Shown: positions 9,166 to 57,989 of the stretch, one piece after another
How the letters are laid out: every line of letters starts with the position of its first letter
Numbering within the stretch: position 1 is the first letter of the stretch
Assembly (NCBI GenBank): GCA_038253225.1
Contig: JBBSHH010000003.1
Coordinates: forward strand, 545 to 64,544
Reading direction: 5' to 3'
From: Mycobacteriales bacterium
GTDB taxonomy: Bacteria; Actinomycetota; Actinomycetes; JALYNC01
DNA length: 64,000 bases
The notes under the pieces: model-generated
What the model was told of the DNA's origin: nothing
The model's input: only the letters and a program-made list of their open reading frames with translations
Databases searched by the model: none
Program-made: the position numbers and the translations under genes

Positions 9166-9166
9166 T

Positions 9167-11259: not shown

Positions 11260-11290
11260 CGGGCCGCCCGGGCTGGCTACCCTCCCCGGT

Positions 11291-11716: not shown

Positions 11717-11727
11717 GCTCGGCGGTC

Positions 11728-12261
11728 GTGCCAGACGACGCCCCGCGGCCCGCGGTCGACCCGCTCGCCTACCGGCGGACGATGGGCCGGTTCGCGACCG
11801 GCGTGACGCTCATCACGACCACGGCCGACGGCGTCGACCTCGCGATGACGGCGAACAGCCTCACGTCCGTGTCGCTGGACCCGGTGCTCGTGCTGATCTG
11901 CGTCGACCGGACGGCGCGCTTCCACGAGGCGGTGCTGGCCAGCAAGACCTGGGCGGTGTCGGTGCTCGGCGCCGGCCCCGACGCCGAGGCGGTTTCCCGG
12001 CACTACGCCCGGCGCGGGCGGCCCGACGCCGACCAGCTCGCCGCGGCCAGCTTCCTTCGTGCGGCGGTGACCGGTCTCCCGGTCCTGGCGGCCGCGATCG
12101 CCACCCTGGAGTGCCGCACCACCGCCGAGTACGACGGCGGCGACCACACGATCCTGCTCGGCGAGGTGCTCGCCGTCGGCGAGCCCGACCGGCCCCTGGT
12201 GCCGCTGGTGTGGTTCCACGGTCGCTACCGCGAGCTGCCGCCGCCGCGGCCCAGCGGCTGA
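11728..12261 (+). CDS. flavin reductase family protein (NADH:flavin oxidoreductase, HpaC-like)
   Basis: FRRTMGRFATGVTLITT and the flavin reductase-like split-barrel domain. Start at the GTG at 11728; the longer upstream extension is Arg/Pro-rich. Confidence 0.8.
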   Translation: MPDDAPRPAVDPLAYRRTMGRFATGVTLITTTADGVDLAMTANSLTSVSLDPVLVLICVDRTARFHEAVLASKTWAVSVLGAGPDAEAVSRHYARRGRPDADQLAAASFLRAAVTGLPVLAAAIATLECRTTAEYDGGDHTILLGEVLAVGEPDRPLVPLVWFHGRYRELPPPRPSG

Positions 12262-12312
12262 CCGGACGCACCGCAACGCACCGGCCACCGGGCCGCCGTG
12301 CTGCCCGGCCGG

Positions 12313-18205: not shown

Positions 18206-18214
18206 CCTCCTGCC

Positions 18215-19066: not shown

Positions 19067-19653
19067 TGGCCGCCGTCTGCGTGTTCTGTGCCTCCAGCGA
19101 GCGGATAGACCGGCGCTACGTCGAGCTGGCGAGCGCGGTCGGCGCCGAGCTCGCCCACCGCGGTCACGAGCTGGTCACCGGCGGTGGCAGCGTCTCCTGC
19201 ATGGGGGCGGTGGCCCGGGCCGCCCGGGCCGGCGGCGCGCGCACCGTCGGGGTCATCCCGCGGGCGCTGCTCGACCTCGAGGTCGCCGACGACGACGCCG
19301 ACGAGCTGCTGGTCACCGAGGACATGCGCCAGCGCAAGGCCGAGATGGACCGCCGGGCCGACGCGTTCCTCACGCTGCCGGGCGGCATCGGCACGCTCGA
19401 GGAGCTGCTCGAGGTGTGGACCGCGCGCACCCTCGGACTGCACGACAAGCCGGTGGTGGTGCTGGACCCCGACGGGGCGTTCGGGCCGCTGCGGGCGCAG
19501 ATCGACCTGCTGGTCGGCGCCGGCTTCGCCCGCCCGGCGATCCACGACTCGATCCGGTGGGCCACCCGGGTGCCGGAGGCGTTCGACCTGCTCGAGGCCC
19601 GGCACCGGACGCTGCCACCCACGCCGGACGAGGTGCTCGAGGCCGAGCCGTAG
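19066..19653 (+). CDS. LOG family protein, short (type I) form
   Basis: VCVFCASS...VTGGGSVSCMGAVA...TLPGGIGTLEELLE. The start ATG overlaps the stop of the preceding LOG gene (TGATG). Confidence 0.85.
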   Translation: MAAVCVFCASSERIDRRYVELASAVGAELAHRGHELVTGGGSVSCMGAVARAARAGGARTVGVIPRALLDLEVADDDADELLVTEDMRQRKAEMDRRADAFLTLPGGIGTLEELLEVWTARTLGLHDKPVVVLDPDGAFGPLRAQIDLLVGAGFARPAIHDSIRWATRVPEAFDLLEARHRTLPPTPDEVLEAEP

Positions 19654-19716
19654 CCCGGCGGTCGGCCCTAGCCCCGCCGCCGGGCGCGGCGCCGGCCCGA
19701 TGTCGAGGGCCTGGTG

Positions 19717-20229
19717 TCAGGCGCCCGAGCGCACCGGCGCGGCCGGGCGCACCCGGACGGCGCGGGCGGTCAGCTGGCCGTCGGCCCTGGTGGCCAGCAC
19801 CTCGACCGACTGGCCGGCGGCCAGCGGGGTCACCGGGGTGGTGGCTCCGGCCGCCGGCTTGCCGGCCCGCACCCTGGTCGCTGCGGTCCGGACGTACGTC
19901 GCGGTGAAGCCGTCCGCGCTGCGTACGGTCAGCGACGTCGTGCTGACCGCGGTGACGAGGCCCTTCTGGACGTCCACGGTGGCGAACCCGCCGTGCTTGG
20001 TGCGCACCACGGCCTCTGCGTGCAGGGCCCGGTGGCCGAGGCGGTCCAGCGGCCCGCGCCGCCGGTCGGCGTCGGCCGCCTTGGGTGCGGCCGCTGCGGC
20101 GGCGGCGGCGGGCTGCGCGCCGGACCCGCCGGTCTTCGCCTGGGCGACCCCGGCGGCCAGCGCGACGCCGAGCACGGCGGCGGCGGTCCACGCGACGACC
20201 GAGGTGGCGGTGCGGGTGCGGAGCTTCAT
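19717..20229 (-). CDS. secreted hypothetical protein with signal peptide
   Basis: ATG at 20229 preceded by AAAGGA. Signal peptide MKLRTRTATSVVAWTAAAVLGVALAAGVAQA, then an Ala-rich linker and a beta-rich C-terminal domain. The upstream 60 codons of the track ORF are Arg/Pro junk. Confidence 0.5.
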   Translation of the reverse strand: MKLRTRTATSVVAWTAAAVLGVALAAGVAQAKTGGSGAQPAAAAAAAAPKAADADRRRGPLDRLGHRALHAEAVVRTKHGGFATVDVQKGLVTAVSTTSLTVRSADGFTATYVRTAATRVRAGKPAAGATTPVTPLAAGQSVEVLATRADGQLTARAVRVRPAAPVRSGA

Positions 20230-20427
20230 CGGGTGTCCTTTGGCGGGCGGGCAGGCCGGCGGGCAGGCAGGCAGGTGGGTCGGCGGGCGGACGCCGGCTG
20301 GCGATGCCCATCCTGCGGTGCGGCTGTGCGGCTCGGGTCGGCGCCGGGTTCGGGTTGTGTAAGGGCGACACCCCGACCCCCCTCGCCGCCGACCGGACCG
20401 GCCCGCTCGCCGTGGCACGATCGCCGG

Positions 20428-20763
20428 GTGGTCGCGCTCACGGCGGTGCTCGTCGCCCTCGTCCTGTTCGCGGTGGCGGCGGTGGCGGCCGGGCGGGGTG
20501 GCAGCTTGCAGATGGAGGACCGAGCGACCGGCGGCCGGCCGTTGCCGCTCGACCGACCGGTGGCGGCGGCGGACATCGCGGCGCTGCGGTTCGGGCTGGC
20601 GTTGCGCGGCTACCGGATGGCGGAGGTGGACGCCGCGTTGGACCGGCTCGGCAACGCGCTGCTCGACCGGGACGGTCGGATCGCGGCGTTGGAGGCCGAG
20701 CTCGGCCGCCCCGGCCGGGCCACCGGACCCGACGCATACCCCGAGGTGCCGCCGGCCGGCTGA
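20428..20763 (+). CDS. small membrane-anchored DivIVA-domain protein
   Basis: TM helix VVALTAVLVALVLFAVAAVAA, then the DivIVA N-terminal motif FGLALRGYRMAEVDAALDRL. GTG at 20428. Confidence 0.55.
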   Translation: MVALTAVLVALVLFAVAAVAAGRGGSLQMEDRATGGRPLPLDRPVAAADIAALRFGLALRGYRMAEVDAALDRLGNALLDRDGRIAALEAELGRPGRATGPDAYPEVPPAG

Positions 20764-20780
20764 CCGGCCACAATCCGGTC

Positions 20781-21245
20781 ATGGTCGAAGCCGGCATCGC
20801 CGAACTGCGTCTGCATGTCGACGTCGAGGCCGCACCGGCGGTGACGTGGGCGGCGATGACCGACTGGGACCGGCAGGGTGAGTGGATGCTCGCCACCTCG
20901 GTCCGGGGCACCGTCGCCGCCGGGCACGGCGTCGGCGGCCAACTGGTGGCGGTCACCGGCCGCCGCCCGTTGGCCTTCCGGGACCCGATGGTGATCACGA
21001 CGTGGGAGCCGCCGTACCGCTGCGTGGTGCGCCACACCGGCCGGTTGGTCCGCGGGGTGGGGATCTTCGAGGTCGCCGAGCTGCCGGGCGGCCGGTCCCG
21101 CTTCATCTGGGTCGAGCAGCTGGTGCTGCCGCTGGGGTGGCTCGGCGAGCTCGGCTTCGGGTTGCTGCGGCCGCTGGCGCGGGTCGGGGTCCGGTACTCC
21201 CTACGCCGGTTCGCCCGCTGGGCACCGACCCGAGGTGGGAGCTGA
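20781..21245 (+). CDS. SRPBCC family protein (polyketide cyclase/dehydrase-like, START fold)
   Basis: ATG at 20781. About 150 aa with SRPBCC pattern (AAMTDWDRQGEWM...VRHTGRLVRGVGIFEV). Confidence 0.7.
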   Translation: MVEAGIAELRLHVDVEAAPAVTWAAMTDWDRQGEWMLATSVRGTVAAGHGVGGQLVAVTGRRPLAFRDPMVITTWEPPYRCVVRHTGRLVRGVGIFEVAELPGGRSRFIWVEQLVLPLGWLGELGFGLLRPLARVGVRYSLRRFARWAPTRGGS

Positions 21246-21811
21246 CCGGTCTGCTGCTCGGCGGCGACGGCCGGGTCCGCTGCGGCTGGGCCGGCGCGGC
21301 CCCCGACTACACCGGCTACCACGACGACGAGTGGGGCCGGCCGGTCCGCGACGACGACGGCATCTACGAGCGGCTCTGCCTGGAGGCGTTCCAGTCGGGG
21401 CTGTCGTGGCTGACGATCCTGCGCAAGCGGCCGGCGTTGCGGGCCGCGTTCGCCGGCTTCGTCATCGACCGGGTCGCCGCGTTCACCGACGACGACGTAC
21501 GCCGGCTGCTGGCCGACCCCGGCATCGTCCGCAACCGGGCGAAGGTGGCGGCGGCGATCGGCAACGCCCGCGCGGCGGCGGCGGTGCCGGGCGGGGTGGC
21601 GGCGCTGGTCTGGTCGCACGCCCCCGGGCCGCGGCCGGCCCCGGCCACCCCGGCGGAGGTGCCGGCCCGGACGCCGGAGTCCGACGCCCTCGCCGCGGAG
21701 CTCAAGCGACGCGGGTTCTCCTTCGTGGGGCCGACGACGGCGTACGCCCTGATGCAGGCCTGCGGGCTGGTGGACGACCATCTCGCCGGTTGCTGGCGGC
21801 GCGGCGGCTGA
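21242..21811 (+). CDS. tag: DNA-3-methyladenine glycosylase I
   Basis: YHDDEWGRPVRDDDGIYERLCLEAFQSGLSWLTILRKR is a near-consensus Tag signature. There is no canonical start between the SRPBCC stop and the VRCGW region; the candidates are CTG at 21242 and GTG at 21137. Confidence 0.85.
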   Translation: MTGLLLGGDGRVRCGWAGAAPDYTGYHDDEWGRPVRDDDGIYERLCLEAFQSGLSWLTILRKRPALRAAFAGFVIDRVAAFTDDDVRRLLADPGIVRNRAKVAAAIGNARAAAAVPGGVAALVWSHAPGPRPAPATPAEVPARTPESDALAAELKRRGFSFVGPTTAYALMQACGLVDDHLAGCWRRGG

Positions 21812-22291
21812 CCCCTCGACCCGAGCAGCCAGCCGGTCGGCCGTCCCGGCGTGACCACCGGGAACGGTCGGGTTGGCGGGGACGCTGTTCGCAACCCGTA
21901 AGCGGGAGGCACCTGGCGTCGGTCGGCCGGGCATCGCAGGGTGGCACCCATGAGTCGTGGCGTCCGCGCAGTTGCCGCTCGCGGTGCGGCGGTCGCGGTG
22001 CTCGCCGCGGTCCTCACCCGGTTGCTGGGGCGGCTGGTGCCCCGGCTGGTGCCGAGCCCGCCAGCCGAGTGGGTGGCCGAGGCTCCACCGGTGGTCGAGC
22101 CCCGGCCGGGGGCCACCACGCCGACCACGCCGCCGGCGCTCCGCCCGGCCGCCGGCGGCAACTCCGGGCGGCGGGAAGCGCGCGGCGTCCCCCCGGCCAG
22201 CGCTCCCGCCGCCCCACCCGGTCCCCGCAGCTGTCGCCGCCGGCCGGCTATCCGGTCCCAGCGGTCTCAGCGGTCTCTGGGCGGCTGCCCG

Positions 22292-30239: not shown

Positions 30240-31781
30240 TCAGATCCGGTCGGCGAACTCCGCCGTGAAGTCGGGCAGGGTGTCCAGTGAGACGCCCAGA
30301 CCGTCGGCGACCCGCCGGCCGTACTCCGCGTCGCACTGGGTGAAGTGCCAAATCATCCGCTCCTGCACGGACTTCTCGCACTGGCCGAGCAGCGTGGTGA
30401 AGTTCAGCACGAGGTCGTCCTTCTCGGCCTCGGAGAGCTCGTAGCCGACCAGTTCTCCGCGCCAGCGCTGGCCGACCTGGCCGTAGGGGTTCTTCCGGTC
30501 GATCGCCTTGCGCTGCAGCGGGCCGGAGATCTCCGGCTCGTACGCCGCGCCGCCGGGCGTAGCCTCGCGCAGCCCGGCGAGGCCGGACGGCTCGAAGTTG
30601 ATGTGCGGGTTGGCACCGACGTTGTCCCGGCCGTAGGACATCAGCCCACCGGTCTGGTTGGTGCTGACCGGGATGCCCTCCGCGGGCCGGTTGACCGGCA
30701 GCTGCTGGTAGTTCGGCCCGACCCGGTAGCGCTGGGTGTCGGAGTAGGAGAACGTCCGGCCGACCAGCATCTTGTCGTCGGAGAAGTCCAGCCCGTCGAC
30801 CAGTACGCCGGTGCCGAACGCGACCTGCTCGTTTTCGTCGTGGTGGCTGGTGACGTTGCGGTTGAGCGTCATGACGCCGACCGGGAGCAGCGGGAACTGG
30901 TCCTCGGGCCAGACCTTGGTGTCGTCGAGCGGGTCGAAGTCGAGCTCCGGGTGCTCGTCGTCGCTCATGACCTGGACGCAGAGCTCCCACTGCGGGAAGT
31001 CCCCGCTCTCGATCGCCTCGTAGATGTCCCTGGAGGCGTGGCCGAGCTCGGTCGCCTGGACGGCGTCGGCCTGGGCCTGGGTCAGCGACTCGATCCCCTG
31101 TCGAGTCTTCCAGTGGTACTTGACCAGCACCGCCTCCCCGGCGGCGTTGACCATCGTGTAGGTGTTGACCCCGAAGCCGTCCATGTGCCGGTAGTCCGCG
31201 GGTATGCCGCGCGTGCTGAACAGAAACGAGAGCATGTGCATGCTCTCCGGCGTCTGCGACATGAAGTCGAAGATGCGGTTGGGCTCCTGGCGGAAGGTCA
31301 CCGGGTCCGGCTTGAGGGAGTGGATGACGTCCGGGAACTTGATCGCGTCGCGGATGAAGAACACCGCGAGGTCGTTGCCGACCAGGTCCCAGTTGCCGTC
31401 CTCGGTGCGCAGCTTGACCGCGAAGCCACGCGGGTCACGGGACACCTCGGAGGAGTCGCGGCCACCGATGACCGTGGAGAGGCGGATCGTGACCGGGGTC
31501 TTGGTGCCCTTGTCCTGGAACAGCTTCGCCCGGGTGTAGGTCGACGCTGGCTGGTCGCCGATGGTGCCGTTGGCCTCGAACTCGCCGTGCGCGACGAACC
31601 CGCGGGCGTGCACCACCCGCTCGGGAATCCGCTCCCGGTCGAAGTGGCTGATCTTCTCGAGGAAGTGGTAGTTCTCCAGCGTCGCCGGGCCGCGGCGCCC
31701 GACGGTGCGCTGGTTCTGGTTGTCGACGATCGGGTGTCCCTGCCGGTCGGTCAGGACGTCGCGGCTCTCTTGGGTGGTCAT
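30240..31781 (-). CDS. katA: monofunctional heme catalase
   Basis: [13 protein letters not shown] (distal His), [21 protein letters not shown], and [14 protein letters not shown] (proximal Tyr region). ATG at 31781, 4-nt overlap with the fur stop. Confidence 0.95.
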
Positions 31782-32251
31782 GCTGTTCCCCTCTCGTCGG
31801 ACGTGGTCCCGGACGGCGTCTCGATCCGGGCCGTGCAGGCCTGGCAGCGGCCCCAGAACGTCACCTCTGCCTCGTCCACCACGAAGCCGGCCGCACCGGA
31901 GGGGTCGAGGCAGGGCGCCGACCCGACCGCGCAGTCGATGTCGGCGGTGGCGCCGCAGTCGCGGCACACGACGTGGTGGTGGTTGTCGCCGACCCGGGCC
32001 TCGAACAGCGCAGGGCTTCCGGCCGGCTCGATCCGGCGAACCAACCCGGCGGTCGTGAACGCCCGCAGGATGTCGTAGACGGCCTGCGTGGACAACGACC
32101 CCAACCGCTCCCGGGCGGCGCCGGCGATCGTCTCGACGTCCCGATGCTGCCCCTCGGGCAGCGCCGCGAAGACGGCCAGTCGGGGGGCGGTCACCCGCAG
32201 GCCGGCGGCCCGGACCCGACTGGCGACGTCCATGGGCTCGACCGGAGTCAT
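31778..32251 (-). CDS. fur: Fur family transcriptional regulator (FurA/CatR-like peroxide-responsive regulator)
   Basis: [26 protein letters not shown]...C-x2-C metal site. Immediately upstream of the catalase and co-directional. Confidence 0.85.
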
Positions 32252-32323: not shown

Positions 32324-32968
32324 TCAGCCGCGTTTGACCGCCACCAGCAGCCCGTCACCGACCGGCAGCAGCGCCGGCACCAGCCGCTCGTCGTCGCGCA
32401 TGCTCCGGCCCAGTTCCCGCACCACGGTGGTCTCCGGGTCCCGCGCGGAGGGGTCGGCGACCCGGTCGTGCCACAGCGCGTTGTCGAACGCCGCCACCCC
32501 GCCCGGGCGCAGCAGCCGCAGCGCCTCGGTGAGATAGTCGGCGTACTCCGTCTTCTCGCCGTCACAGAAGACGAGGTCGTAGCCGCCGTCGGTCAGCCGC
32601 GGCAAGACCTCGAGGGCCGGCCCGTTGATCATCCGGACCCGCCCGGGTGGGAAGCCGGCCTCGGTGTAGCTCTGGCGGGCCAGCCGCTGGTGCTCGGCCT
32701 CGATGTCGACGCTGGTCAGGACGCTGTCGGTCGGCATGCCGCGGAGCAGCCAGATGCCGGACACACCGCAGCCGGTGCCGATCTCGACCACGTGTCGGGC
32801 CCGGAGCGTGGCTGCGAGGAACCGCAGCGTCGCCCCGCCACCGGCGCCGATCGGGACCGCACCGACCTCGGTGCCGCGCTGGCGGGCCGCCGCGAGCGCG
32901 GCGTCCTCCGGCAGGTAGGCGTCGGCGTAGTCGCGGCTGGCCTGCGCCCCCGCTGGTCCCGTGCTGAT
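32324..32968 (-). CDS. class I SAM-dependent O-methyltransferase (family 3, Rv1220c-like)
   Basis: [19 protein letters not shown] motif [10 protein letters not shown], and LLRPGGV. The conserved N-terminus ([21 protein letters not shown]) extends upstream of the only canonical start, GTG at 32791. An in-frame stop lies at 33002-33004. Confidence 0.8.
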
Positions 32969-33016
32969 GGCGGCCTCCCCGGATCGACTCGGACCGCGAG
33001 CCTAGCGGGGACGGCG

Positions 33017-33042
33017 GGAACCCGGTCCCGGCGCGTTCCGTT
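33017..33042 (+). promoter_or_regulatory. ECF sigma-E type promoter (GGAAC-N17-CGTT) upstream of sigE, predicted autoregulatory
   Basis: gGGAACccggtcccggcgcgttcCGTTgg lies about 60 nt upstream of the sigE ATG and matches the ECF02/SigE consensus in sequence and spacer length. Confidence 0.6.
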
Positions 33043-33100
33043 GGCTGAGGACGGGGTTCGACCGGGTGGCCCGTGGCCCGCGGCGCAGGAAGGCGGCACC

Positions 33101-33739
33101 ATGGTGGGGACGGATGTGGTGCCCGGTTCCGACGCCCGGCCGGCGGGAGGTGTCTTCGTGGTGGAGCGTCCCGAGCCCGCCGACCTCCCCGTCGAGTGGA
33201 CTCCGCCGAGCTGGGACGAAGTGGTCCGCACCCATTCGGCCCGGGTGTACCGGCTGGCCTACCGGCTGACCGGCAACCAGCATGACGCCGAGGACCTCAC
33301 CCAGGAGGTCTTCGTCCGGGTCTTCCGGTCGTTGGGGTCCTACACGCCTGGCACGTTCGAGGGTTGGCTGCACCGCATCACCACGAACCTGTTTCTCGAC
33401 CTGGTCCGCCGGCGGGCCAGGATCCGGTTCGAGGGTCTGCCGGAGGACGCCGAGCGGATCCCCGGTCGCGAGCGCACCCCGGCACAGGTCTACGACGACA
33501 CCCACCTCGACGGCGACGTGCAGGCGGCGCTGGACGGCCTGCTCCCGGAGTTCCGGGCCGCCGTGGTGCTCTGCGACATCGAGGGCCTGTCCTACGAGGA
33601 GATCGCCGCGACGCTCGGGATCAAGCTGGGTACGGTCCGCAGCCGCATCCACCGGGGCCGGGCGGCGTTGCGCGCCGCCCTCGGGCACCGGGCCCCGGAG
33701 CCCGACGGGGACCGCACGGCCGATGGAGGTTCCGCGTGA
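33101..33739 (+). CDS. sigE: ECF RNA polymerase sigma factor SigE
   Basis: Region 2 ([17 protein letters not shown]...[15 protein letters not shown]) and region 4 ([25 protein letters not shown]). ATG at 33101 with AGGAAGG SD. Confidence 0.9.
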
Positions 33740-34302
33740 GCATCCGTCCCTCCCCCAGCTCCCGGGCGCACCTGGGGGAGACCGCGGCGCCCCTGGTCGA
33801 CGGCGAGCTCGGCCACGCCGCCCGCGACGCCGCGTTGGCGCACCTGGCCGGCTGCGCCCGGTGCCGCGCCGAGGTCGACAGCCAGCGTCGGGCCAAGGTC
33901 CGGATCTCCGGCCTGACCGGCCCGGTCCCCGGCGCCGATCTGCTCGCCCGGCTGCAGGCCATCGGCTCCGACGCCGACCGGCCGCCGCCCCGCCCGTCCC
34001 CGCCGCCGCGGCGGCCGCGGCTGATCGGTCGACGGCCGCTACCCGCCCGCCCGCCCGCCCGCCGCCCGGCCGGCGGCCGGAGCCGGCTGCGCTACACCGT
34101 CGCCGGCGCGACGTCGGTGGTGCTGCTCAGCGTCGGGATGTCGCTGCTCGGCGCCGGGGAGAACGACCCGGGCCAGCGGATCACCCCCGCGGTCGACCGG
34201 TTCGCCGAGGAGCATGCCGCCACCACCGGCGAGGTGCCGTTCACCGAGCCGGCCGTCGGGGCGGCGGTGTCCGTCTCGTTCGCCACGTCGGCGCGGCCGT
34301 GA
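33736..34302 (+). CDS. rseA: anti-sigma-E factor RseA (zinc-associated anti-sigma, HxxxCxxC)
   Basis: GTG overlaps the sigE stop (GTGA). [12 protein letters not shown] motif. Pro/Arg-rich linker, then a TM helix ([14 protein letters not shown]). Confidence 0.8.
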
Positions 34303-35414
34303 GCGCAGCCGGCCTCGCGCCGCGGCCGGCGCGGGTCCGGGCGCTCATACTCGCCGCCGGCCTGGGCACGGTGAGCAGCGTCGGGCTGCTCAGCGAGCCC
34401 GGCCTCGCCGCCGGTCCGCCGCTGGTGACCCGGGCTGCGCCCGCGGCCGGCGACCCGGGGGCGCTCGCCCTGCTCCGGCGCGCCTCCAGGGCGGCCTACG
34501 GGACGTCCTACCGCGGGGTGCAGTACGTCTCGTCGTGGGGCGACGGGGCGGCCACCAGCGTCGTCGTGGAGGTCGCGCACCGGGCCGGGGCGGGTTCGCT
34601 GGTCCGGGTCGAGTCCACGGCGGCGGGCGGCGGGGTGAGCGTCTACGAGAGCGACTCGCGGGCGGGGGCGGCCGAGGTGGACGCGCCCGGGGGCGCGCTG
34701 GCCCTGCTGGAACGCAACTTCGTCGTACGGATGGGCTGGCCGGACCAGGTCGCCGGCCACCGCGCCGACGTGGTGGAGGTCCGCCGCCCGGCCGGCTCGC
34801 TCGCGGCCCGGCTCTGGCTCGACCACCGCACCGGCCTGGTGCTGCGTCGGGAGGTGCACGACACGCACGGGCGGCTGGTCCGGGCCAGTGCGTTCGTGCA
34901 GCTCGACGTCGGCGAACCCGGCGCCGTACCGCAACCGGTGGCCGACCGCGGCCAGGCCCTGCCACCGCCGTGGGGAGCGCGGCTGACCGCGGCCCAGCTG
35001 GCTGGGATGCGCACGGCCGGCTGGGCGGTGCCGCAGTCGCTGCCGCCGGACCTCAGCCGCTACGACGCACGGGCCCGGACCGCCGGCGGCCGGCAGGTGC
35101 TGCACCTGTCCTACTCCGACGGGCTGTCCACGGTGTCGATGTTCGAGCAGCGCGGCCGGCTGGCCGATGCGGACCTGCACGACTGGCGCAAGACCCGGCT
35201 GGCCGGCGCCACCGTCTACGTCCGGGACACCCTCCCGCAGCGGCTGTCCTGGGCCAGCCGTGGGATGGTGTACACCCTGATCGCCGACGCCCCACCGGAG
35301 ACGGTCGAGGCGGTGGTGCGCAGCTTGCCGCACGGGAGAAGGTCGGTGGGGTTCGTGACCCGGGTGCACCGCGGACTGGTGCGGATCGGGTCGTGGTTCA
35401 ACCCGTTCGGCTGA
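34299..35414 (+). CDS. MucB/RseB-like sigma-E regulatory protein
   Basis: GTG overlaps the rseA stop (GTGA). N-terminal signal or TM segment. The core LLERNFVVRMGWPDQVAGHRADVVEVRRPAGSLAARLWLDHRTGLVLRREVHDTHGRLVRASAFVQLDVG parallels the E. coli RseB region LERSYQL...LWVDRDTGLLLK..V....G.L.E...F.SL. Confidence 0.7.
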   Translation: MSAAGLAPRPARVRALILAAGLGTVSSVGLLSEPGLAAGPPLVTRAAPAAGDPGALALLRRASRAAYGTSYRGVQYVSSWGDGAATSVVVEVAHRAGAGSLVRVESTAAGGGVSVYESDSRAGAAEVDAPGGALALLERNFVVRMGWPDQVAGHRADVVEVRRPAGSLAARLWLDHRTGLVLRREVHDTHGRLVRASAFVQLDVGEPGAVPQPVADRGQALPPPWGARLTAAQLAGMRTAGWAVPQSLPPDLSRYDARARTAGGRQVLHLSYSDGLSTVSMFEQRGRLADADLHDWRKTRLAGATVYVRDTLPQRLSWASRGMVYTLIADAPPETVEAVVRSLPHGRRSVGFVTRVHRGLVRIGSWFNPFG

Positions 35415-35432
35415 TCGACCCCGCCCGACCGG

Positions 35433-36902
35433 TTGTCGGGCCGCCCGACGCCTCGAGGAAACGACACCGCGATGACTGACGACGACCGCACCGAGCGCCT
35501 TCCCGGCGCGGACCCGCAGGCCGCCCCGTGGTGGTCGCGCCCCGCGGCGGAGGACCCGTGGCGCCCGCCGGCCGAGCCCCCCGCCGACGCCCCGACGTAC
35601 ACCGACACCGCACCGATCCCCCCGGTCGGCGGCGGCTCGCAGCCCGGCGCGACCCGGATCGACCCGGCTCCCGGCCCGACCGGCACGGCGACGCGTCCGG
35701 TCGAGGGCTGGGGGTATCCGGTCGACACGGTCGGGCGGCCGGTCGGCGGTACCCGGCGGTCCCTGCTGTGGCTGCTGCTGCCGGTGGCGCTGATCGCCTC
35801 GCTGGTCGGCGGCGGCATCGGGGGGTGGGTGGGTTACCGCAGCGCGGACCGTTCCCGCTCCGGTCCGCTGACCGACCAGAATGCGACGCTCGGGGCACCC
35901 ACCGGTACCACGGCCGGCTCGGCCTCTAGGCCGCCGGACTCGGTCGCCGGGATCGCCCGCAAGGTGCTGCCGAGCGTGGTCTCGATCAGCGTCCGGTCCA
36001 GCAGCAGCGCCGGCACCGGATCCGGGGTGATCCTGCGCTCGGACGACTACATCCTGACGAACAACCACGTGGTCGCCGAGGCCGGCAGCGGCGGTCGCAT
36101 CGATGTCACCTACAGCGACAACCGCACCAGCAGCGCCCGGATCGTCGGGGTCGATCCGAAGTCCGACCTGGCCGTGATCAAGGCGGCGCAGCGCGGCGGC
36201 ACGCCGGCCGAGCTCGGCAACTCCGACGACCTGGTGGTCGGTGACCCGGTGATCGCGATCGGCTCGCCGCTCGGCCTGCAGGGCACGGTGACCTCGGGCA
36301 TCGTCAGCGCCAAGAACCGGCCGGTCACCCCGAACGGCGAGGCCGGCAGCAGCAACGACGCGTTCTTCAGCGCGATCCAGACCGATGCTGCCGTCAACCC
36401 GGGCAACTCCGGCGGCCCGCTGGTCAACTCACGCGGCCAGGTCGTCGGGATCAACTCCGCGATCGCCACCCTCGGCGCCAGCAACCCCTTCGGCGGGCAG
36501 TCGGGCTCGATCGGTCTCGGCTTCGCGATCCCGATCGACCAGGCCCGCTCGGTCGCCGAGCAGCTCATTCGGACCGGCAAGGCCGCCCACCCGGTGCTCG
36601 GCGTCCGGGCGACCACGCTGAGCCCGCAGCAGGCCGAGTCGATGCCCGGGTCGCAGCCCGGCGCATTGATCTCCGGCTCCGGCACCCAGCCGGGGATCGT
36701 CTCGGGTGGGCCCGCCGACAAGGCCGGCTTGCGGGCCGGGGACATCATCGTGGCGATCGACCGCGAGCGGGTCACCGGCATCGATGAGCTGATCGTCGCG
36801 GTCCGCGCGCACCAGGTGGGAGACGTCGTCACGGTGACGTACCTGCGCGGCGGCACGTCCCACCGCGCGCGGGTCACGCTCGGCAGCGACAGTGGCGGCT
36901 GA
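35433..36902 (+). CDS. htrA: HtrA/DegP family serine protease (PepD-like) with a single PDZ domain
   Basis: Pro-rich cytoplasmic N-terminus, a TM helix, a trypsin-like domain (GTGSGVIL...TNNHVV, DLAVIK, GNSGGPLVN catalytic triad) and a PDZ domain. Confidence 0.9.
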   Translation: MSGRPTPRGNDTAMTDDDRTERLPGADPQAAPWWSRPAAEDPWRPPAEPPADAPTYTDTAPIPPVGGGSQPGATRIDPAPGPTGTATRPVEGWGYPVDTVGRPVGGTRRSLLWLLLPVALIASLVGGGIGGWVGYRSADRSRSGPLTDQNATLGAPTGTTAGSASRPPDSVAGIARKVLPSVVSISVRSSSSAGTGSGVILRSDDYILTNNHVVAEAGSGGRIDVTYSDNRTSSARIVGVDPKSDLAVIKAAQRGGTPAELGNSDDLVVGDPVIAIGSPLGLQGTVTSGIVSAKNRPVTPNGEAGSSNDAFFSAIQTDAAVNPGNSGGPLVNSRGQVVGINSAIATLGASNPFGGQSGSIGLGFAIPIDQARSVAEQLIRTGKAAHPVLGVRATTLSPQQAESMPGSQPGALISGSGTQPGIVSGGPADKAGLRAGDIIVAIDRERVTGIDELIVAVRAHQVGDVVTVTYLRGGTSHRARVTLGSDSGG

Positions 36903-36985
36903 CCGGCCGTACCCTCGGGGGTCGTGCGCCGGCGGTGCGCCCACCGCAGCGCCGCTGGTCGCGGTGATCCACCTCCGACTCCGTC

Positions 36986-37336
36986 GTGACGGGAGGCCAG
37001 GTGCTCGACCATCTCGGCGCTGGCGAGCTCGTCGTCATCGTGCTCGTCGGCCTGTTCGTGTTCGGCCCGGAGCGGCTGCCGCAGGTGGCCGCCGACTTCG
37101 GCCGGGCGCTGCGCCGCTTCCGCCAGATCGCCCAGGGGGCGACCGCCGAGCTGAAGTCCGAGCTCGGGCCGGAGATGGCCGACCTCGACCTCGCCTCGCT
37201 GAACCCGCGGACGTTCGTCCAGAAGCACCTGTTCGACGACGACGACGGGCAGTCGGCACCGACCGCCGTGGCTCGGGCCACCCAGCAGCCGCTGGCCGAG
37301 GGGGAGCGCCCGCCCTACGACCCCGACGCCACCTGA
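36986..37336 (+). CDS. tatB: Sec-independent protein translocase TatB
   Basis: LGAGELVVIVLVGLFVFGPERLP is the TatA/B N-terminal helix. An amphipathic helix and an acidic tail follow. An alternative GTG start lies at 37001. Confidence 0.85.
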   Translation: MTGGQVLDHLGAGELVVIVLVGLFVFGPERLPQVAADFGRALRRFRQIAQGATAELKSELGPEMADLDLASLNPRTFVQKHLFDDDDGQSAPTAVARATQQPLAEGERPPYDPDAT

Positions 37337-37369
37337 GGGGTCCGGTCCGAACCGTCCGGTCGGCGCGCG

Positions 37370-38509
37370 CTACCGGCCGGCCGGGGTGAGCCGCAGCGGG
37401 CGGCCGACCAGCCCGCGGGCGCGGCCGCCGAGCCGGTCCGCGACGGCCCGCAGCTCCTTCGACGCCGGCGCGTCGGGGTCATCGAGGACCAGCGGCCGGC
37501 CGGAGTCGCCGCCCTCCCGCAGCCGGATGTCGATCGGTACCGAGCCGAGCAAAGGGACCGTCGCGCCGGTGGCGGTGCTCAGCGCCGCCGCCACCGCGGC
37601 CCCGCCGCCGGAGCCGAACACCTCGACCAGCTCGCCGCAGTGCGGGCAGGGCAGTCCGGCCATGTTCTCCACAACGCCGGCGATGGCCTGGTGGGTCTGC
37701 AACGCCACGGTCCCGGCCCGCTCCGCCACCTCCCGGGCGGCGAGCTGCGGTGTCGTGACGACCAGCAGCTCCGCACTCGGGACCAGCTGCGCCACCGAGA
37801 TCGCGATGTCGCCGGTCCCGGGCGGCAGGTCCATCAGCAGCACGTCCAAGTCACCCCAGTAGACGTCGGCGAGGAACTGCTGCAGCGCCCGGTGCAGCAT
37901 CGGCCCGCGCCACACGACGGGGCTGTTCCCCTGCACGAACATGCCGATCGAGATGACTTTGACGCCGTACGCCGACGGCGGCATGATCATGCTCTCGACC
38001 TGGGTCGGCCGGCCGGTGACACCGAGCATCCGGGGCACCGAGTGGCCGTAGATGTCGGCGTCGACCACTCCGACCGACAGGCCGCCGGCGGCCATCGCCA
38101 CGGCGAGGTTCACCGTCACCGACGACTTGCCGACCCCGCCCTTGCCGCTGGCGACGGCGTAGACCCGGGTCAGCGAGGACGGCTGCGCGAAGGGGATCTC
38201 CCGGCTGGGTGAGTCGCCGCGCAGCTGGGTCTGCAGCGTCCGGCGTTGCTCCTCGGACATGACGTCGAGCTCGACCGCCACCCCGGTGACACCGGGCAGG
38301 GCGGCCACCGCCGCGGTCACGTCCTTGGTGATCCGGTCCTTGAGCGGGCAGCCGCTGACCGTGAGATAGATGGCGACCTGGACCCGGCCGTCGACGCCGA
38401 CCGCCACCGACTTCACCATGCCCAGCTCGGTGATCGGGCGGTGGATCTCCGGGTCGGACACGGTCGCGAGCGCGGCCAGCACGGCGTCGTTCGCAGGGGG
38501 AGTAGGCAT
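37370..38509 (-). CDS. mrp: Mrp/ApbC/NBP35 family iron-sulfur cluster carrier ATPase
   Basis: N-terminal DUF59 (MIP18-like) domain, ParA-type P-loop VASGKGGVGKSSVTVNLA, and a conserved CPxC (GLPCPHCGE). Confidence 0.9.
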   Translation of the reverse strand: MPTPPANDAVLAALATVSDPEIHRPITELGMVKSVAVGVDGRVQVAIYLTVSGCPLKDRITKDVTAAVAALPGVTGVAVELDVMSEEQRRTLQTQLRGDSPSREIPFAQPSSLTRVYAVASGKGGVGKSSVTVNLAVAMAAGGLSVGVVDADIYGHSVPRMLGVTGRPTQVESMIMPPSAYGVKVISIGMFVQGNSPVVWRGPMLHRALQQFLADVYWGDLDVLLMDLPPGTGDIAISVAQLVPSAELLVVTTPQLAAREVAERAGTVALQTHQAIAGVVENMAGLPCPHCGELVEVFGSGGGAAVAAALSTATGATVPLLGSVPIDIRLREGGDSGRPLVLDDPDAPASKELRAVADRLGGRARGLVGRPLRLTPAGR

Positions 38510-38608: not shown

Positions 38609-39106
38609 GTGCCGGTAACGCGGGTGAGGGATCGGGGTCGCTCGGTGCCCGCGCCCGACGAGCTGGTGATGTGGCGTGCGTTCCTGCGCGCCCACGCGGT
38701 GCTGACCCGGCGGCTCGAGGCGGATCTGATGGTCGAGTGCGGGCTGCCGCTGCCGTGGTACGACGTGCTGCTCCAGCTCGCCGAGGCCCCCCAGCGGCGG
38801 CTGCGGATGACCGAGCTCGCCGACCGGGTGCTGCTCTCCCGAAGCGGGCTGACCCGGCTGGTCGATCGGTTGCAGCAGGACCGGCTGGTCCGGCGGGAGC
38901 CCTGCCCGAGCGACGCCCGCGGCACGTTCACGGTCCTGACCGACGGCGGCCTGGCCCGGCTCCGGGCCGCCTCACCCGTCCACCTGAACGGCATCGCCAC
39001 CGCGGTGACCGGCCGGTACTCCCCGGTCGAGCTCGCCACGCTGGGCCAGCTGCTGTCCCGGCTCGGCACGGCACCGTCGGAGTGGCCCGACTCAGGCGCG
39101 AAGTAG
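38609..39106 (+). CDS. MarR family transcriptional regulator
   Basis: Winged-helix region MTELADRVLLSRSGLTRLVDRLQQDRLVRRE. Confidence 0.8.
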   Translation: MPVTRVRDRGRSVPAPDELVMWRAFLRAHAVLTRRLEADLMVECGLPLPWYDVLLQLAEAPQRRLRMTELADRVLLSRSGLTRLVDRLQQDRLVRREPCPSDARGTFTVLTDGGLARLRAASPVHLNGIATAVTGRYSPVELATLGQLLSRLGTAPSEWPDSGAK

Positions 39107-41422
39107 CGCCGCCACCCCGTGCTCGAGGGCGGCTGCCCCGACCGGCTTGGCCAGGGTCGCGTCGGCGCCGGAACCGGTGAGCTCCGCCGTTCCGGTGCCG
39201 GCCTCGTCGACGAAGGCGAGGATCGGTAGCGGGTCCCCGTCGGCGGCCCGCAGCCGGCGCAGCAGCGCGGGTGCGGGAAGGTCCGCCAGCTCGCTGTCCA
39301 CGAGGACTCCGGCGTAGTCGCCGCCGGCGGCGAGCTGGAGCGCCTCTTCCGCGGTGCCGACCGCGTCCACCTCGGCGGAGCCGGTCAGTGCGGCGCTGAC
39401 GAACGAGCGGAAGCCCGGGTCGTGGCTGGCCAGCAGCACCCGCGGTGCGAGCACCTGTTCGAGGGCGGCGGTTCGCCCGGCGGCGACCGGCGCCGGCGCG
39501 GGGGTGCGGCAGTACGGGCACACCTTCCAGCTGGCGTCGAGCGGGCGGGCGCAGCTGTCGCAGCGGCCGCGACCGACCGGGGTGGTGCACCAGGGGCAGA
39601 CGACCATGTCGTCGGTGACGCCGTTGCGGCAGCTCGGGCAGTGCGCCCCGGCGCCGTCGTCGACCTGGGTGACCCGCAGGACCTCCTCGAACGTCGTCTC
39701 GCCGCGGCGGGCCTTGGCCAGCCCGGAGCCCCGCATGGTCACCATCCCGGCCGCCCGGGCGGCCGTCGCCACCGCGGCCTCGGTCGGGTTCTCCAGCAGC
39801 ACCGCACGCATCGTCGCGGTCACCACGAGCACCTCGAACACGCCCAGTCGGCCCTTGTAGCCGGTGCCGCCGCAGTCCGAGCAGCCGCGACCGCGCCGCG
39901 GTGTGTCCTCGGCGAGGTCGGCGGCGGTGAGCCCCAGCAGCTGCAGCACCCGGGCGGAGGGGATGTAGGGCTCGGCGCAGGCCGCACACGGCCGCCGGAC
40001 CAGCCGCTGACCGACCACGAGGGAGAGCGACGAGGCGACGAGGAAGGGCTCGACACCCATGTCGACGAGCCGGGTCAGCGCCGCCGGTGCGTTGTTCGTG
40101 TGCAGGGTCGTCAGCACGAGGTGGCCGGTGAGCGAGGCCTCCAGCGCCAGCTTCGCCGTCTCGGTGTCCCGGACCTCGCCGACCAGCACCACGTCGGGGT
40201 CCTGCCGCAGGATCGAACGCAGCCCGCGGGCGAAGCTCAGGCCGGCCTTGTCGTTGGTCTGCACCTGGGTGATCCCCGGCACCTGGATCTCGACGGGGTC
40301 CTCGAGCGTGACGATGTTCCGCTCCGGCGTGCGGATGTGGTTGATCGCCGAGTACAGCGTGTTCGTCTTGCCGGAGCCGGTCGGGCCGGTGATGAGCACG
40401 AGGCCCTGCGGCGAGGCCAGCGAGGTCAGCAGCCCCTCCAGCTGCTCACCCTCGATGCCCATCCGCTGGATCGCCGGCACCGAGTCGGCTCGGGTGAGCA
40501 GCCGGACGACAATCTTCTCGCCGTGGACGGCGGGCAGCGTGCTGACCCGGCAGTCGATCTTCTGGCCGTCCACGAGCAGCTGGGTGCGGCCGTCCTGCGG
40601 TACCCGCCGCTCGGCGATGTCCAGGCCGGCCACCACCTTCACCCGGCTCACCAGCCCGGCGGCGGCCGACTTCGGCACGGTCATCACGTCGCGCAGGACG
40701 CCGTCGACGCGGTAGCGGATCCGGACCTCCTTGGCCTCGGGCTGCACGTGCACGTCGCTGGCGTTGGCGCGGACCGCGTCGGCGAGCACCACGTTGACCA
40801 GCCGGACCAGCGGCGCGTCGTCGATGGAGCCGGCGCCGGCCGGGTCCAGCTCGGAGGTGTCGGGCTCGAGCTCCTCGAAGAAGCCGACCATGTCGGGGTT
40901 GCTCTCCGACAGCGACCACGCCCGGCCCAGGTAGTCGCGCAGCTGGCTCTCCGTCGCGACGACCACGCTGAGGTCGGCCACCCCGGTGTAGAGCTTGACG
41001 TCGTCAAGAGCCACGACGTTCGTCGGGTCGACGCAGGCCACCCGCAGGCCGCTGCCGGTCCGGTCCAGGACCAGCACGCCGCTGCGATGCGCGACCGCCT
41101 GCGGCAGCAGCCGCACCAGCTCCTGATTGATCGAGGTGCGGCCGAGATCGACCAACGGCAGGTTCAGGGCGCTCGCGAGCGCGCTCGCGAGCGCCCGCTC
41201 GTCGGTGAAACCGCTCTCGATCAGCACCTGCCCCAACCGCCGCCGCCGGGTGCCGGCGGGGGTCTCCGCCTGTGTCCGCAGCGCCTCGTGCAGCTGGCTC
41301 TCGGTGATCGCCCCCTGCTCCAGAAGCACCTCACCGAGCCGGCGACGACGGCGCTCCGCGGCCGGCGCCGGCGCCGGCGGGGTCGGCAGGCGGTCGGTGG
41401 TGCCGAAATGGGGCGGAGTCAC
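39092..41422 (-). CDS. orphan PilB/GspE-type secretion ATPase with N-terminal MshEN-like domain, extra C-terminal zinc ribbons and a CheY-like receiver-like domain
   Basis: The N-terminus carries two RLGxxLLxxGxIxxxxLxxALxxQ-like repeats (RRLGEVLLEQGAITESQLHEALRTQ and RRLGQVLIESGFTDERALASALASAL). The ATPase core has Walker A GPTGSGKT, Asp-box/Walker B DPDVVLVGEVRD, His box LVLTTLHTNNA, and the tetracysteine CAAC...CSDC. Next come CPSC...CPWC and CDSC...CPYC zinc ribbons. The tail (VLLASHD, VLVDSELADLP, LAKP) has a REC fold. Confidence 0.85.
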   Translation of the reverse strand: MTPPHFGTTDRLPTPPAPAPAAERRRRRLGEVLLEQGAITESQLHEALRTQAETPAGTRRRRLGQVLIESGFTDERALASALASALNLPLVDLGRTSINQELVRLLPQAVAHRSGVLVLDRTGSGLRVACVDPTNVVALDDVKLYTGVADLSVVVATESQLRDYLGRAWSLSESNPDMVGFFEELEPDTSELDPAGAGSIDDAPLVRLVNVVLADAVRANASDVHVQPEAKEVRIRYRVDGVLRDVMTVPKSAAAGLVSRVKVVAGLDIAERRVPQDGRTQLLVDGQKIDCRVSTLPAVHGEKIVVRLLTRADSVPAIQRMGIEGEQLEGLLTSLASPQGLVLITGPTGSGKTNTLYSAINHIRTPERNIVTLEDPVEIQVPGITQVQTNDKAGLSFARGLRSILRQDPDVVLVGEVRDTETAKLALEASLTGHLVLTTLHTNNAPAALTRLVDMGVEPFLVASSLSLVVGQRLVRRPCAACAEPYIPSARVLQLLGLTAADLAEDTPRRGRGCSDCGGTGYKGRLGVFEVLVVTATMRAVLLENPTEAAVATAARAAGMVTMRGSGLAKARRGETTFEEVLRVTQVDDGAGAHCPSCRNGVTDDMVVCPWCTTPVGRGRCDSCARPLDASWKVCPYCRTPAPAPVAAGRTAALEQVLAPRVLLASHDPGFRSFVSAALTGSAEVDAVGTAEEALQLAAGGDYAGVLVDSELADLPAPALLRRLRAADGDPLPILAFVDEAGTGTAELTGSGADATLAKPVGAAALEHGVAALLRA

Positions 41423-44263: not shown

Positions 44264-44796
44264 AGGCGCTTACGTCGGGGCCGCCGGTGCAGGGTGAACG
44301 GGACCCGGACCCGGGTGGTGGCCGGGGTGTCCGCCGGCTCGGCGGCGTGCGAGGACGTCGAGAGCCGGTCCGGGCTCTCCAGCAGCTCACCGGCCGGCGC
44401 CAGCCGGTGCAGCACCGACTCGCGGGCCCACCGGGCCGGCGCCTCGTCGCCGTCGGGCGGGTTCAACCGCTTGGCCTGCAGCAGCGGCACCACCGCGGCC
44501 CAGTCGGCGCTGCCCGGCGCCACCGCCGCGACCGCGGCGGGCCAGGTCACCAGCCGGCCGCCGGTGTCCTTGCTGGCCACCGTCACGCTCACCGGCCGGC
44601 CCCCGGTCGCCGCGGCGGCCATCCCGGGCAGCTCCTGCTCGCGGCCGCCGGTGAGGACGTACGCCGCGCCCTCGTGCCAGATGTGCCACACCGGTCGGGG
44701 GCGGCCGCCCGGCACCGTCACCCAGACCAGCCCGCTCTTCCGGGTTGCTTCGGCGACCAACGCCTGGTCCCGGCCGGCAGGGTCGGCGACACCGAC
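44260..44796 (-). CDS. hypothetical protein (about 178 aa)
   Basis: C-terminal portion of a 308-aa minus ORF with protein-like composition (VWVTVPGGRPRPVWHIWHEGAAYVLTGG...). The upstream part is Ser/Ala-rich junk. The plus-strand alternative is clearly spurious. Confidence 0.35.
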   Translation of the reverse strand, partial: VGVADPAGRDQALVAEATRKSGLVWVTVPGGRPRPVWHIWHEGAAYVLTGGREQELPGMAAAATGGRPVSVTVASKDTGGRLVTWPAAVAAVAPGSADWAAVVPLLQAKRLNPPDGDEAPARWARESVLHRLAPAGELLESPDRLSTSSHAAEPADTPATTRVRVPFTLHRRPRRKRL

Positions 44797-44965
44797 GGGC
44801 GGCTCCGTGGTGCCCCGGTCGCTCACCGGGTCAAGCCTGCCACGTCGAGCCGATACTGGTGCGGTGCGCGCCGACCCGGGCGGTACGGCGCTCGGCGCCG
44901 ACCGCCGACCGCTGCCCGGCCCCGCGCGCGCCGGGGTGCACCGCCCGCCCGGCGCTGACGTCGCG

Positions 44966-45838
44966 GTGCTGACGGTCGCGGTGCTCGCGGTCAGCACCTC
45001 GGGACCGCTGATCGCCGCCTGCGCCGCGCCGGCGCTGGCGATCGCGTTCTGGCGCAACGCGATGGCCAGTGGCGTGCTGCTGCCATGGGCGCTGCTCCGG
45101 CACCGCGGTGAGCTACGCCGCCTCGACGCCCGCGAGTGCGGGCTTGCGCTGCTGGCCGGCGCGGCGCTGGCCGGGCACTTCGCCACCTGGGTGCCGAGCC
45201 TGTCCTATACCTCGGTCGCGAGCGCCACCGCGCTGGTCGCGACCCAGCCGATCTGGGCGGCGCTGATCGCCCGCTCCCGGGGCCACCACATCCCGGTCAA
45301 CGCCTGGGGCGGCATCCTGCTCGCGGTGCTCGGCGCGGTGCTGCTTTCCGGGGTGGACTTCGCCGCCGACCGCCGCGCGCTGGTCGGCGACGGGCTGGCG
45401 TTGGTCGGAGGGCTGCTCGCCGCGGTGTACATGGCCACCGGCAGCGAGGTCCGCCGGAGCGTCAGCACCACGACGTACACGACGGTCTGCTACACCACCG
45501 CGGCGGCGCTGCTGCTCGGCTGCTGCGGGGTCGCCGGCGCCTCCCTCACCGGTTACTCCGCCCGGACCTGGTGGCAGCTCGCCGCGCTGACCGCCGGCGC
45601 CCAGCTGCTCGGCCACTCGCTGATCAACCGGGTGCTGCGCACCAGCAGCGCCACCGTGGTGTCGCTGTCGATCCTGTTCGAGATCCCCGGCGCGGCCCTG
45701 ATCGCTGCGGTGTTCCTCGCGCAGCGACCCCCGGCGGCGGCCATCCCGGCCGCCCTGCTGCTGGTCGCCGGGGTGGCGCTCGTCGTCGGACGCGGCGACC
45801 GCACCGAGCCGTCCCCGCCGGCCGCGCCGGTGGAGTGA
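44966..45838 (+). CDS. EamA/DMT family transporter
   Basis: Ten predicted TM helices in two EamA repeats. GTG at 44966. The upstream part of the track ORF is S/T/A/G-rich junk. Confidence 0.8.
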   Translation: MLTVAVLAVSTSGPLIAACAAPALAIAFWRNAMASGVLLPWALLRHRGELRRLDARECGLALLAGAALAGHFATWVPSLSYTSVASATALVATQPIWAALIARSRGHHIPVNAWGGILLAVLGAVLLSGVDFAADRRALVGDGLALVGGLLAAVYMATGSEVRRSVSTTTYTTVCYTTAAALLLGCCGVAGASLTGYSARTWWQLAALTAGAQLLGHSLINRVLRTSSATVVSLSILFEIPGAALIAAVFLAQRPPAAAIPAALLLVAGVALVVGRGDRTEPSPPAAPVE

Positions 45839-57976: not shown

Positions 57977-57989
57977 TGGCCGCCGGCAG

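Follow-up and report, generated by a model that had tools for sequence, protein, structure and literature searches.

In Gram-negative bacteria, the only group in which they are understood, RseB and MucB read lipopolysaccharide (LPS) or lipid signals and gate the cleavage of an anti-sigma factor. SigE, a major regulator of envelope stress and virulence in actinobacteria, is known in mycobacteria for a cytoplasmic control that involves PknB and Clp. Does an actinobacterial SigE also answer to an RseB? The question is raised by a 64,000-nucleotide stretch of DNA (hereafter the window) from a Mycobacteriales bacterium (assembly GCA_038253225.1, contig JBBSHH010000003.1, positions 545 to 64,544), in which sigE and an rseA-like anti-sigma gene are followed by a third gene (34299..35414, + strand) encoding a protein of 371 residues, and then by htrA. 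An earlier note on this DNA aligned the core of the third protein by eye with RseB/MucB, stated that no actinobacterial SigE system with an RseB was known, and proposed an RseB-type lock on RseA proteolysis. By sequence comparison and structure prediction, the third gene product is a genuine two-domain MucB/RseB homologue.

The Pfam family for the MucB_RseB N-domain (PF03888), which has a gathering cut-off of 22.3 bits, matches residues 137–207 of the protein with 33.3 bits (E = 4.6e-8). A family profile, built from an alignment of 41 homologues (A1) and searched against all PDB sequences, matches Pseudomonas aeruginosa MucB with E = 4.7e-13 (profile positions 43–271) and Escherichia coli RseB with E = 1e-5. 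The HMMER alignment to MucB covers LLERNF...VAGHRADVVEVRR...LWLDHRTGLVLRREVHD, the very stretch that had been aligned by eye, and the earlier alignment thus holds. The AlphaFold 2 model of the protein has a predicted local distance difference test (pLDDT) score of 82.5 and a predicted template modelling score of 0.77, with a LolA-like N-domain at residues ~53–205 and a C-domain at ~231–345. When this model was compared with the PDB by Foldseek, the top 15 matches were all MucB/RseB chains (E = 5e-15 to 4e-11) aligned over 309–331 columns spanning both domains, with target-normalised TM-scores of 0.49–0.66 and a sequence identity to MucB and RseB of 14–21%. Single-domain folds of the LolA superfamily (NE2245, LprG, and LolA) appear only from E = 5e-5, about 10 orders of magnitude weaker. 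The earlier note had allowed for an unrelated or merely LolA-like fold, which these top 15 matches rule out. The N-terminal domain does have the same open beta-barrel fold as LolA, LolB, LprG, and LppX, which suggests a hydrophobic ligand. Unlike these single-domain carriers, however, the RseB-like protein possesses an RseB-type C-domain, lacks a lipobox Cys, and is linked to an anti-sigma factor.

The GC content of the window is ~75%, which gives long spurious open reading frames in all frames, and the similarity to RseB could on that account be a chance or compositional artefact of a third frame that is no real gene. Given hundreds of homologues that are full-length and share 33 invariant positions, a confidently predicted fold, significant PDB matches, and conserved synteny, the probability of such an artefact is negligible, and a spurious reading frame was ruled out.

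The N-terminus of the RseB-like protein consists of a basic stretch followed by a hydrophobic segment at residues 13–33 (Kyte-Doolittle hydropathy 1.76), a pattern also found in the family consensus. Judged by hydropathy alone, the protein is exported, with this segment serving as a signal or an anchor, in agreement with the prior description of it as membrane-anchored or secreted. It contains no Cys and no lipobox; a lipoprotein was ruled out since there is no Cys. At the other end, a basic amphipathic helix (residues 352–361) precedes the sequence S-W-[LFIV]-N-P-F-x and the stop codon, the motif reading SWFNPFG in the window (residues 365–371; 35391..35411, +). A1 shows little or no variation at these positions, and among 150 family representatives, 100 end in W-x-N-P-[FLYW] plus at most three residues, while most of the others carry close variants. 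The additional conserved helix and SWxNPFx end would distinguish the protein from its counterparts in E. coli and P. aeruginosa.

The RseB-carrying sigE arrangement is common in related actinomycetes and has already been annotated automatically, though it is unstudied as a system. Its distribution was assessed in 80 metagenomic loci that were fetched by a SigE anchor and then mapped for genes, a sample biased to SigE proteins at least 69% identical to that of the window. Gene content was counted in the 28 related loci that extend 3 kb or more beyond rseA, and an RseB gene was found in 23 of them (~80%). Downstream of sigE-rseA, 13 of the 28 loci contain rseB and tatB, nine contain rseB, htrA, and tatB as in the window, and one contains rseB and htrA with no tatB match; the mycobacterial or Streptomyces type, htrA and tatB, occurs in two, tatB only in one, and none of the three genes in the remaining two. 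More than 40 related loci show sigE, rseA, and rseB in this order. An initial homology search for the RseB-like protein returned 264 clusters, all from Actinomycetota, and a profile run exhaustively against 1.84 billion representatives returned at least 627 clusters (50% identity) at E ≤ 1e-30, the best 150 of which are all full-length RseB-like proteins. JGI has named many homologues "sigma-E factor negative regulatory protein RseB", and NCBI uses "RseB domain-containing protein" or "MucB/RseB C-terminal domain-containing protein". A cultured carrier also exists, Actinopolymorpha pittospori, whose locus (L008) has the same gene order and an automatically named RseB-type protein.

The claim that actinobacterial SigE systems have no RseB is thus wrong in general and right for the model genera. 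The locus is no exception among its relatives, as the comparison with sigE loci of related genera that the earlier note had called for makes clear. As to the model genera, the locus of a Streptomyces isolate (L091) comprises sigE, a gene for a 302-residue anti-sigma factor, htrA, and tatB, with no RseB-like open reading frame within 15 kb. The mycobacterial sigE locus is not known to encode an RseB either. The Corynebacterium glutamicum locus consists of sigE-cseE-tatB and contains no RseB (PMC10012870). A literature search found no paper on an actinobacterial RseB, which is weak evidence since most subscription journals lay outside its coverage.

The sigma factor itself is of the mycobacterial SigE type by its family assignment. 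The sigE gene (33101..33739, +) begins with ATG behind a GGAAGG ribosome-binding site, and its 212-residue product matches the NCBIfam SigE equivalog NF007229 with 341 bits against a cut-off of 265, as well as Pfam Sigma70_r2 and r4_2; against the RpoE equivalog it scores 83 bits, where the cut-off is 236. The product is thereby classed among the extracytoplasmic function (ECF) sigma factors. The rseA-like gene (33736..34302, +) encodes 188 residues that match zf-HC2 (PF13490) with 24.4 bits (cut-off 22.2), a match that includes the putative zinc-binding motif H36-x3-C40-x2-C43 (HLAGCARC; 33841..33864, +). This N-terminal zinc-type anti-sigma domain is followed by a Pro/Arg-rich linker, one predicted transmembrane helix at residues 120–141 (34093..34158, +; Kyte-Doolittle value 1.84 in a 19-residue window), and an outer tail of ~47 residues. 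The hydrophobic segment is found in all related RseA proteins. Mycobacterial RseA is a cytoplasmic protein. Its control is exerted through phosphorylation by PknB and degradation by ClpC1P2 (PMC3062566). Scored with the mycobacterial RseA model NF041468, the window protein obtains 29.8 bits against a cut-off of 165, and residues 9–57, the zinc domain, alone match. As read from its sequence, the RseA of the window is hence unlike mycobacterial RseA, since it also has a transmembrane helix and, outside the membrane, a tail that is conserved.

The conserved part of this tail is a motif at residues 148–168 (34177..34239, +), with the family consensus PGP.VTP.V....VEHA.TTG.VP. Across 41 RseA proteins from RseB-carrying loci, mean conservation is 0.70 in the zinc domain and 0.61 in the tail motif, as compared with 0.42 in the linker and 0.29 at the C-end. 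A hidden Markov model of the tail was trained on half of the RseB-carrying loci and tested on the held-out rest. The model detected the motif in 19 of the 20 RseB-carrying loci that had been held out, versus two of eight loci without RseB, both of the latter degenerate. The 302-residue anti-sigma factor of the Streptomyces locus without RseB (Streptomyces sp. NPDC059373) has a long, Ser/Pro-rich outer tail that lacks the motif, with a tail model score of −10 bits. Two loci without RseB (L085 and L089) retain a decayed tail motif (TPSVDVLVVPHENLNG...), which has the look of a remnant left when RseB was recently lost.

RseA and RseB also occur as a single protein. Four divergent fusions of 475–505 residues (P0335, P0337, P0338, and P0339) join a zinc anti-sigma domain, a transmembrane helix, and an RseB-like domain. 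In P0335, residues 2–148 align with the RseA of the window (E = 8e-11) and residues 193–495 with its RseB (E = 4e-38), and P0337 is encoded exactly between sigE and htrA in locus L010 (5001–6518). Fusion of neighbouring genes in the same syntenic slot is a classical sign of physical or functional partnership, and the natural anti-sigma::RseB fusions thus argue for such a partnership between RseA and RseB. The C-terminus of the fused proteins is different, with the SWxNPFx end missing, which fits a docking or tethering role made needless by the covalent link. The hydrophobic segments, moreover, would put the tail of RseA on the same outer side of the membrane as the RseB-like protein and the catalytic and PDZ domains of HtrA. 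On this sequence evidence, RseB probably acts on or with the RseA tail.

An explanation that dispenses with any such contact is that the protein is a LolA-superfamily carrier of lipids or lipoproteins, merely co-transcribed with sigE as an output of its regulon. The LolA-like N-domain, the weaker structural matches to LolA, LprG, and related carriers, and an operon shared with the envelope-maintenance genes htrA and tatB are all in keeping with a carrier. The two-domain fold, however, matches MucB/RseB specifically, with E near 1e-14 as opposed to 5e-5 or weaker for LolA-type folds, and a carrier without RseA contact accords poorly with the covalent fusions to an anti-sigma factor and with a tail motif that tracks the presence of RseB. 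The gene also always lies directly after rseA, with a 4-nucleotide overlap in the window and in five related loci. A mere carrier is therefore very unlikely.

If RseB instead works through the RseA tail, the following mechanism can be proposed. SigE would be held at the membrane by the single-pass, zinc-type, RseA-like anti-sigma factor, whose short outer tail bears the conserved motif VEHAxTTGxVP. The exported RseB-like protein would bind this tail and prevent activation, in all likelihood by denying a site-1 protease access to the tail. A ligand from the envelope, probably a lipid, would enter the LolA-like N-domain and release the RseB-like protein, after which cleavage of the tail, intramembrane cleavage, and cytoplasmic degradation would free SigE to boost its own operon through the GGAAC-N17-CGTT promoter. 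The neighbouring membrane-anchored HtrA is a candidate, though not an obligatory one, for the site-1 protease. In E. coli and P. aeruginosa, RseB and MucB regulate negatively by protecting the anti-sigma factor, and E. coli RseB blocks site-1 cleavage until released by a lipid signal, LPS (PMC8103513). A full RseB-type lock on RseA proteolysis, as the earlier note proposed, is plausible, with a probability of roughly 0.6, its binding, negative sign, and protease cascade being carried over from E. coli and P. aeruginosa.

The likeness to those two systems is considerable. As in E. coli RpoE-RseA-RseB(-RseC) with DegS and RseP and in P. aeruginosa AlgU-MucA-MucB with AlgW, an ECF sigma factor, a single-pass anti-sigma factor, and an exported two-domain RseB/MucB protein are encoded in that order. 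The RseB fold is the same, a membrane-anchored HtrA-family PDZ protease is available, and the promoter is of the same self-amplifying type with a −35 element of GGAAC. In contrast to both, the sigma factor here is of the mycobacterial SigE rather than the RpoE type, the zinc-type anti-sigma factor (HxxxCxxC) has a short tail of ~47 residues, natural anti-sigma::RseB fusions occur, and the envelope presumably contains no LPS. The unit also includes no rseC, and the protease gene, where present, lies in the same operon.

The sign of the regulation could also be the reverse. RseA and the RseB-like protein might together form a split anti-sigma factor, with the latter as a detachable sensor domain that acts positively, passing a ligand signal to RseA through a conformational change or protease recruitment and so turning SigE on. 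The natural fusions resemble ordinary anti-sigma factors with a large extracytoplasmic sensor, which a sensor fits as well as a shield does; the co-occurrence of the tail motif with RseB and the lack of any LPS or outer-membrane-protein logic in this envelope also speak for a sensor. However, both characterised homologues are negative regulators (PMC8103513), and nothing in the sequence signals a reversal. A positive sensor is accordingly judged unlikely, and the lock is preferred.

Several observations count against the lock or the homology beneath it. Of the two Pfam models that the earlier note had singled out for a check, the N-domain model passes its threshold as given above, while the C-domain model PF17188 (MucB_RseB_C) matches residues 241–343 with 23.7 bits (E = 5.2e-5), below its gathering score of 30.1; a precomputed PF17188 match is, for its part, present on many homologues. 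No NCBIfam family, including the one that names RseB, matches the 371-residue protein at E ≤ 1; it belongs to a distant subfamily and is no equivalog of E. coli RseB. The co-occurrence of tail motif and RseB has a Fisher p of 5e-4 that is uncorrected for phylogeny. In the AlphaFold 2 model of the fusion P0335, the anti-sigma and RseB domains are confident, but residues 63–172, comprising the transmembrane helix and tail, have pLDDT below 50 and no docking of the tail is predicted. LPS, the ligand in E. coli, is presumably absent from this envelope, and the releasing signal must therefore differ from that of E. coli; the LolA-like pocket and the distant structural matches to LprG and LolA suggest a lipid, which is speculation. 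SigH also reads GGAAC/CGTT promoters in corynebacteria and mycobacteria (PMC10012870), and the reader of the sigE promoter may be SigE, SigH, or both, so that autoregulation is a prediction. Finally, 13 of the 23 RseB-carrying loci have no htrA between rseB and tatB, and a cis-encoded HtrA is thus no universal site-1 protease.

This last point bears on the idea that the cis-encoded HtrA is a dedicated DegS-like site-1 protease of RseA gated by RseB, which would reproduce the full E. coli RseA-RseB-DegS logic. The htrA gene of the window (35472..36902, +) encodes 476 residues with matches to Pfam Trypsin_2 (116 bits) and PDZ_2 (49.8 bits), and the catalytic-triad motifs TNNHV, DLAV, and GNSGGP are present in its translation. 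Hydropathy predicts a cytoplasmic N-terminus, a transmembrane helix at residues 94–121, and an outer protease domain with one PDZ, an architecture like that of DegS. In addition, rseB has htrA next to it both in the window and in 10 of 23 RseB-carrying loci, and loci with htrA retain the W of the C-terminal RseB motif in 12 of 13 cases, as against 10 of 19 for loci without it. On the other side, besides its absence from the majority of RseB-carrying loci, htrA also occurs in loci without RseB, and the protein scores 166.6 bits against the DegS equivalog TIGR02038, for which the cut-off is 423. It falls well below the cut-off of the mycobacterial HtrA equivalog too. Mycobacterial HtrA has other substrates. 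A dedicated role for the cis-encoded HtrA is possible but doubtful. RseB is more tightly linked to sigE-rseA than htrA is, given the 13 loci that lack the latter. Loci in which rseB directly precedes tatB with no htrA include L001, L029, L035, L042, L045, and L047, among others. The RseB C-terminus was also considered as a PDZ ligand of the neighbouring HtrA; this is without specific support, as the [N/D]PFx end is kept with or without an adjacent htrA.

Upstream of sigE lies an ECF-type promoter (33017..33042, +) with a −35 element GGAAC at 33017–33021, a 17-nucleotide spacer, and a −10 element CGTT at 33039–33042, the latter ending 59 nucleotides upstream of the sigE ATG at 33101. GGAAC-N15-18-CGTT has a single match on either strand of the window, where 0.83 are expected by chance, and no second GGAAC...CGTT site, such as one before htrA, was found in it. 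With about one chance match expected, the lone match is weak by itself; position and conservation are what count. Among the 70 related loci with enough upstream sequence, GGAAC-N17/18-CGTT lies within 330 nucleotides upstream of sigE in 64, against a background of 0.005 per 330 nucleotides in the same loci, and the spacer sequences are unrelated. The experimentally derived sigma-E promoter consensus of C. glutamicum is GGAAC-N17-18-cGTT, and the mycobacterial consensus, stated to be identical, is shared by the locus of the window (PMC10012870). Because it is conserved in relatives and matches the published consensus, the element is very probably a real ECF promoter, from which transcription is predicted to start near 33049.

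The junctions between the first three genes suggest that translation is linked as well. The stop codon of sigE overlaps the start codon of rseA within GTGA at 33736–33739, and that of rseA overlaps the start of the rseB-like gene within GTGA at 34299–34302. Both 4-nucleotide overlaps recur in the gene calls of five related loci; the Actinopolymorpha locus has no rseA/rseB overlap. Going by these overlaps, sigE, rseA, and the rseB-like gene are translationally coupled. The promoter, both GTGA junctions, and the synteny with the mycobacterial type of sigE locus had all been proposed in the earlier note and are borne out here.

With respect to this synteny, the gene order in the window is O-methyltransferase / sigE-rseA-rseB-htrA-tatB / mrp. 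The unit ends with a tatB-like gene (36986..37336, +), identified by tblastn synteny and by homologues in related loci that match the TatA_B_E Pfam family. To its right lies mrp, in convergent orientation; its product is 80–83% identical to proteins from metagenome-assembled genomes of uncultured "Mycobacteriales", "Frankiaceae", and "Frankiales", which places the source among uncultured actinomycetes close to Frankiales. The conserved left neighbour of sigE is a divergently transcribed class-3 O-methyltransferase gene (32324..32968, −; Pfam Methyltransf_3, 114.5 bits; start codon uncertain). Further out are dapD, dapE, LOG-family genes, a family 4 glycosyltransferase gene (GT4), and a glgC-like gene. 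The M. tuberculosis locus sigE-rseA-htrA-tatB (Rv1221–Rv1224) is alike in its orthologous SigE, to judge from the NF007229 score above cut-off, in its O-methyltransferase, htrA, tatB, and mrp flanks, and in the more distant dapD/dapE, GT4, and glgC. The O-methyltransferase / sigE-antisigma-...-tatB / mrp backbone is also shared with Streptomyces and Corynebacterium (PMC10012870).

Other features of the window are noted alongside. In the open frame of the O-methyltransferase (32324–33001, −), neither ATG nor GTG nor TTG occurs before codon 71, homology to orthologues begins near codon 20, and the sole start candidates are ATC (codon 12, 32966–32968) and CTG (codon 30). An Ile codon also opens the gene calls in L005 and L091. 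The gene may thus use a non-canonical start ~49 nucleotides from the sigE promoter. Between it and the glgC-like gene lies a catalase-Fur pair (30240–32251, −). The same position in relatives is occupied by catalase-Fur (L002) or a KatG-type peroxidase-Fur (L005 and L006) or is empty (L003, L004, and L008), and an oxidative-stress cassette is therefore variably inserted beside the sigE locus. A type II/IV secretion ATPase (T2SSE) of 776 residues (39092–41422, −) combines an MshEN domain with a double zinc ribbon and an extension at the C-terminus; in the L005 orthologue, a receiver-domain match falls in this extension, and the gene adjoins mrp/marR in several relatives. Two adjoining, slightly overlapping LOG-family (Lysine_decarbox / SLOG) genes are found downstream of dapD/dapE (18206–19653, +). 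An FtsH-like protein of 697 residues (9166–11259, +) contains a Peptidase_M41 domain and a partial AAA match (model positions 1–73 of 131) and may be a divergent or degenerate FtsH paralogue. A gene filter based on GC at third codon positions called no genes in 11260–13724, 19654–22291, 44264–45838, and 57977–59804. Rfam and tRNA scans found no matches across the window, and a terminator and sigma-70 promoter scan of 32700–37500, uninformative at 75% GC, likewise found none.

As to how the present distribution arose, it can be suggested, as a tentative idea that is rather doubtful, that the RseA-tail/RseB pair was the ancestral sensor of actinobacterial SigE and was lost in Mycobacterium, Corynebacterium, and Streptomyces with a switch to other inputs. 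Such a sensor would detect a non-LPS envelope lipid or lipid-linked precursor through its LolA-like pocket, and the strongly conserved SWxNPFx would serve for docking to the RseA tail, to the membrane, or to an HtrA PDZ, becoming dispensable on fusion.

Since the locus is not rare and is already annotated automatically, its value lies in an unstudied system rather than in this single window. Compared with the proteobacterial paradigm, the system offers a different ECF group, a zinc-type anti-sigma factor with a motif-bearing tail, an RseB C-terminal motif, natural fusions, and an envelope presumably free of LPS. Many actinomycetes keep an RseB homologue paired with a membrane-spanning RseA that bears a dedicated tail motif, the two sometimes being fused. 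With Actinopolymorpha as a culturable carrier, it becomes possible to ask what an RseB-type sensor detects in the absence of LPS, and how and why the model genera lost extracytoplasmic sensing.

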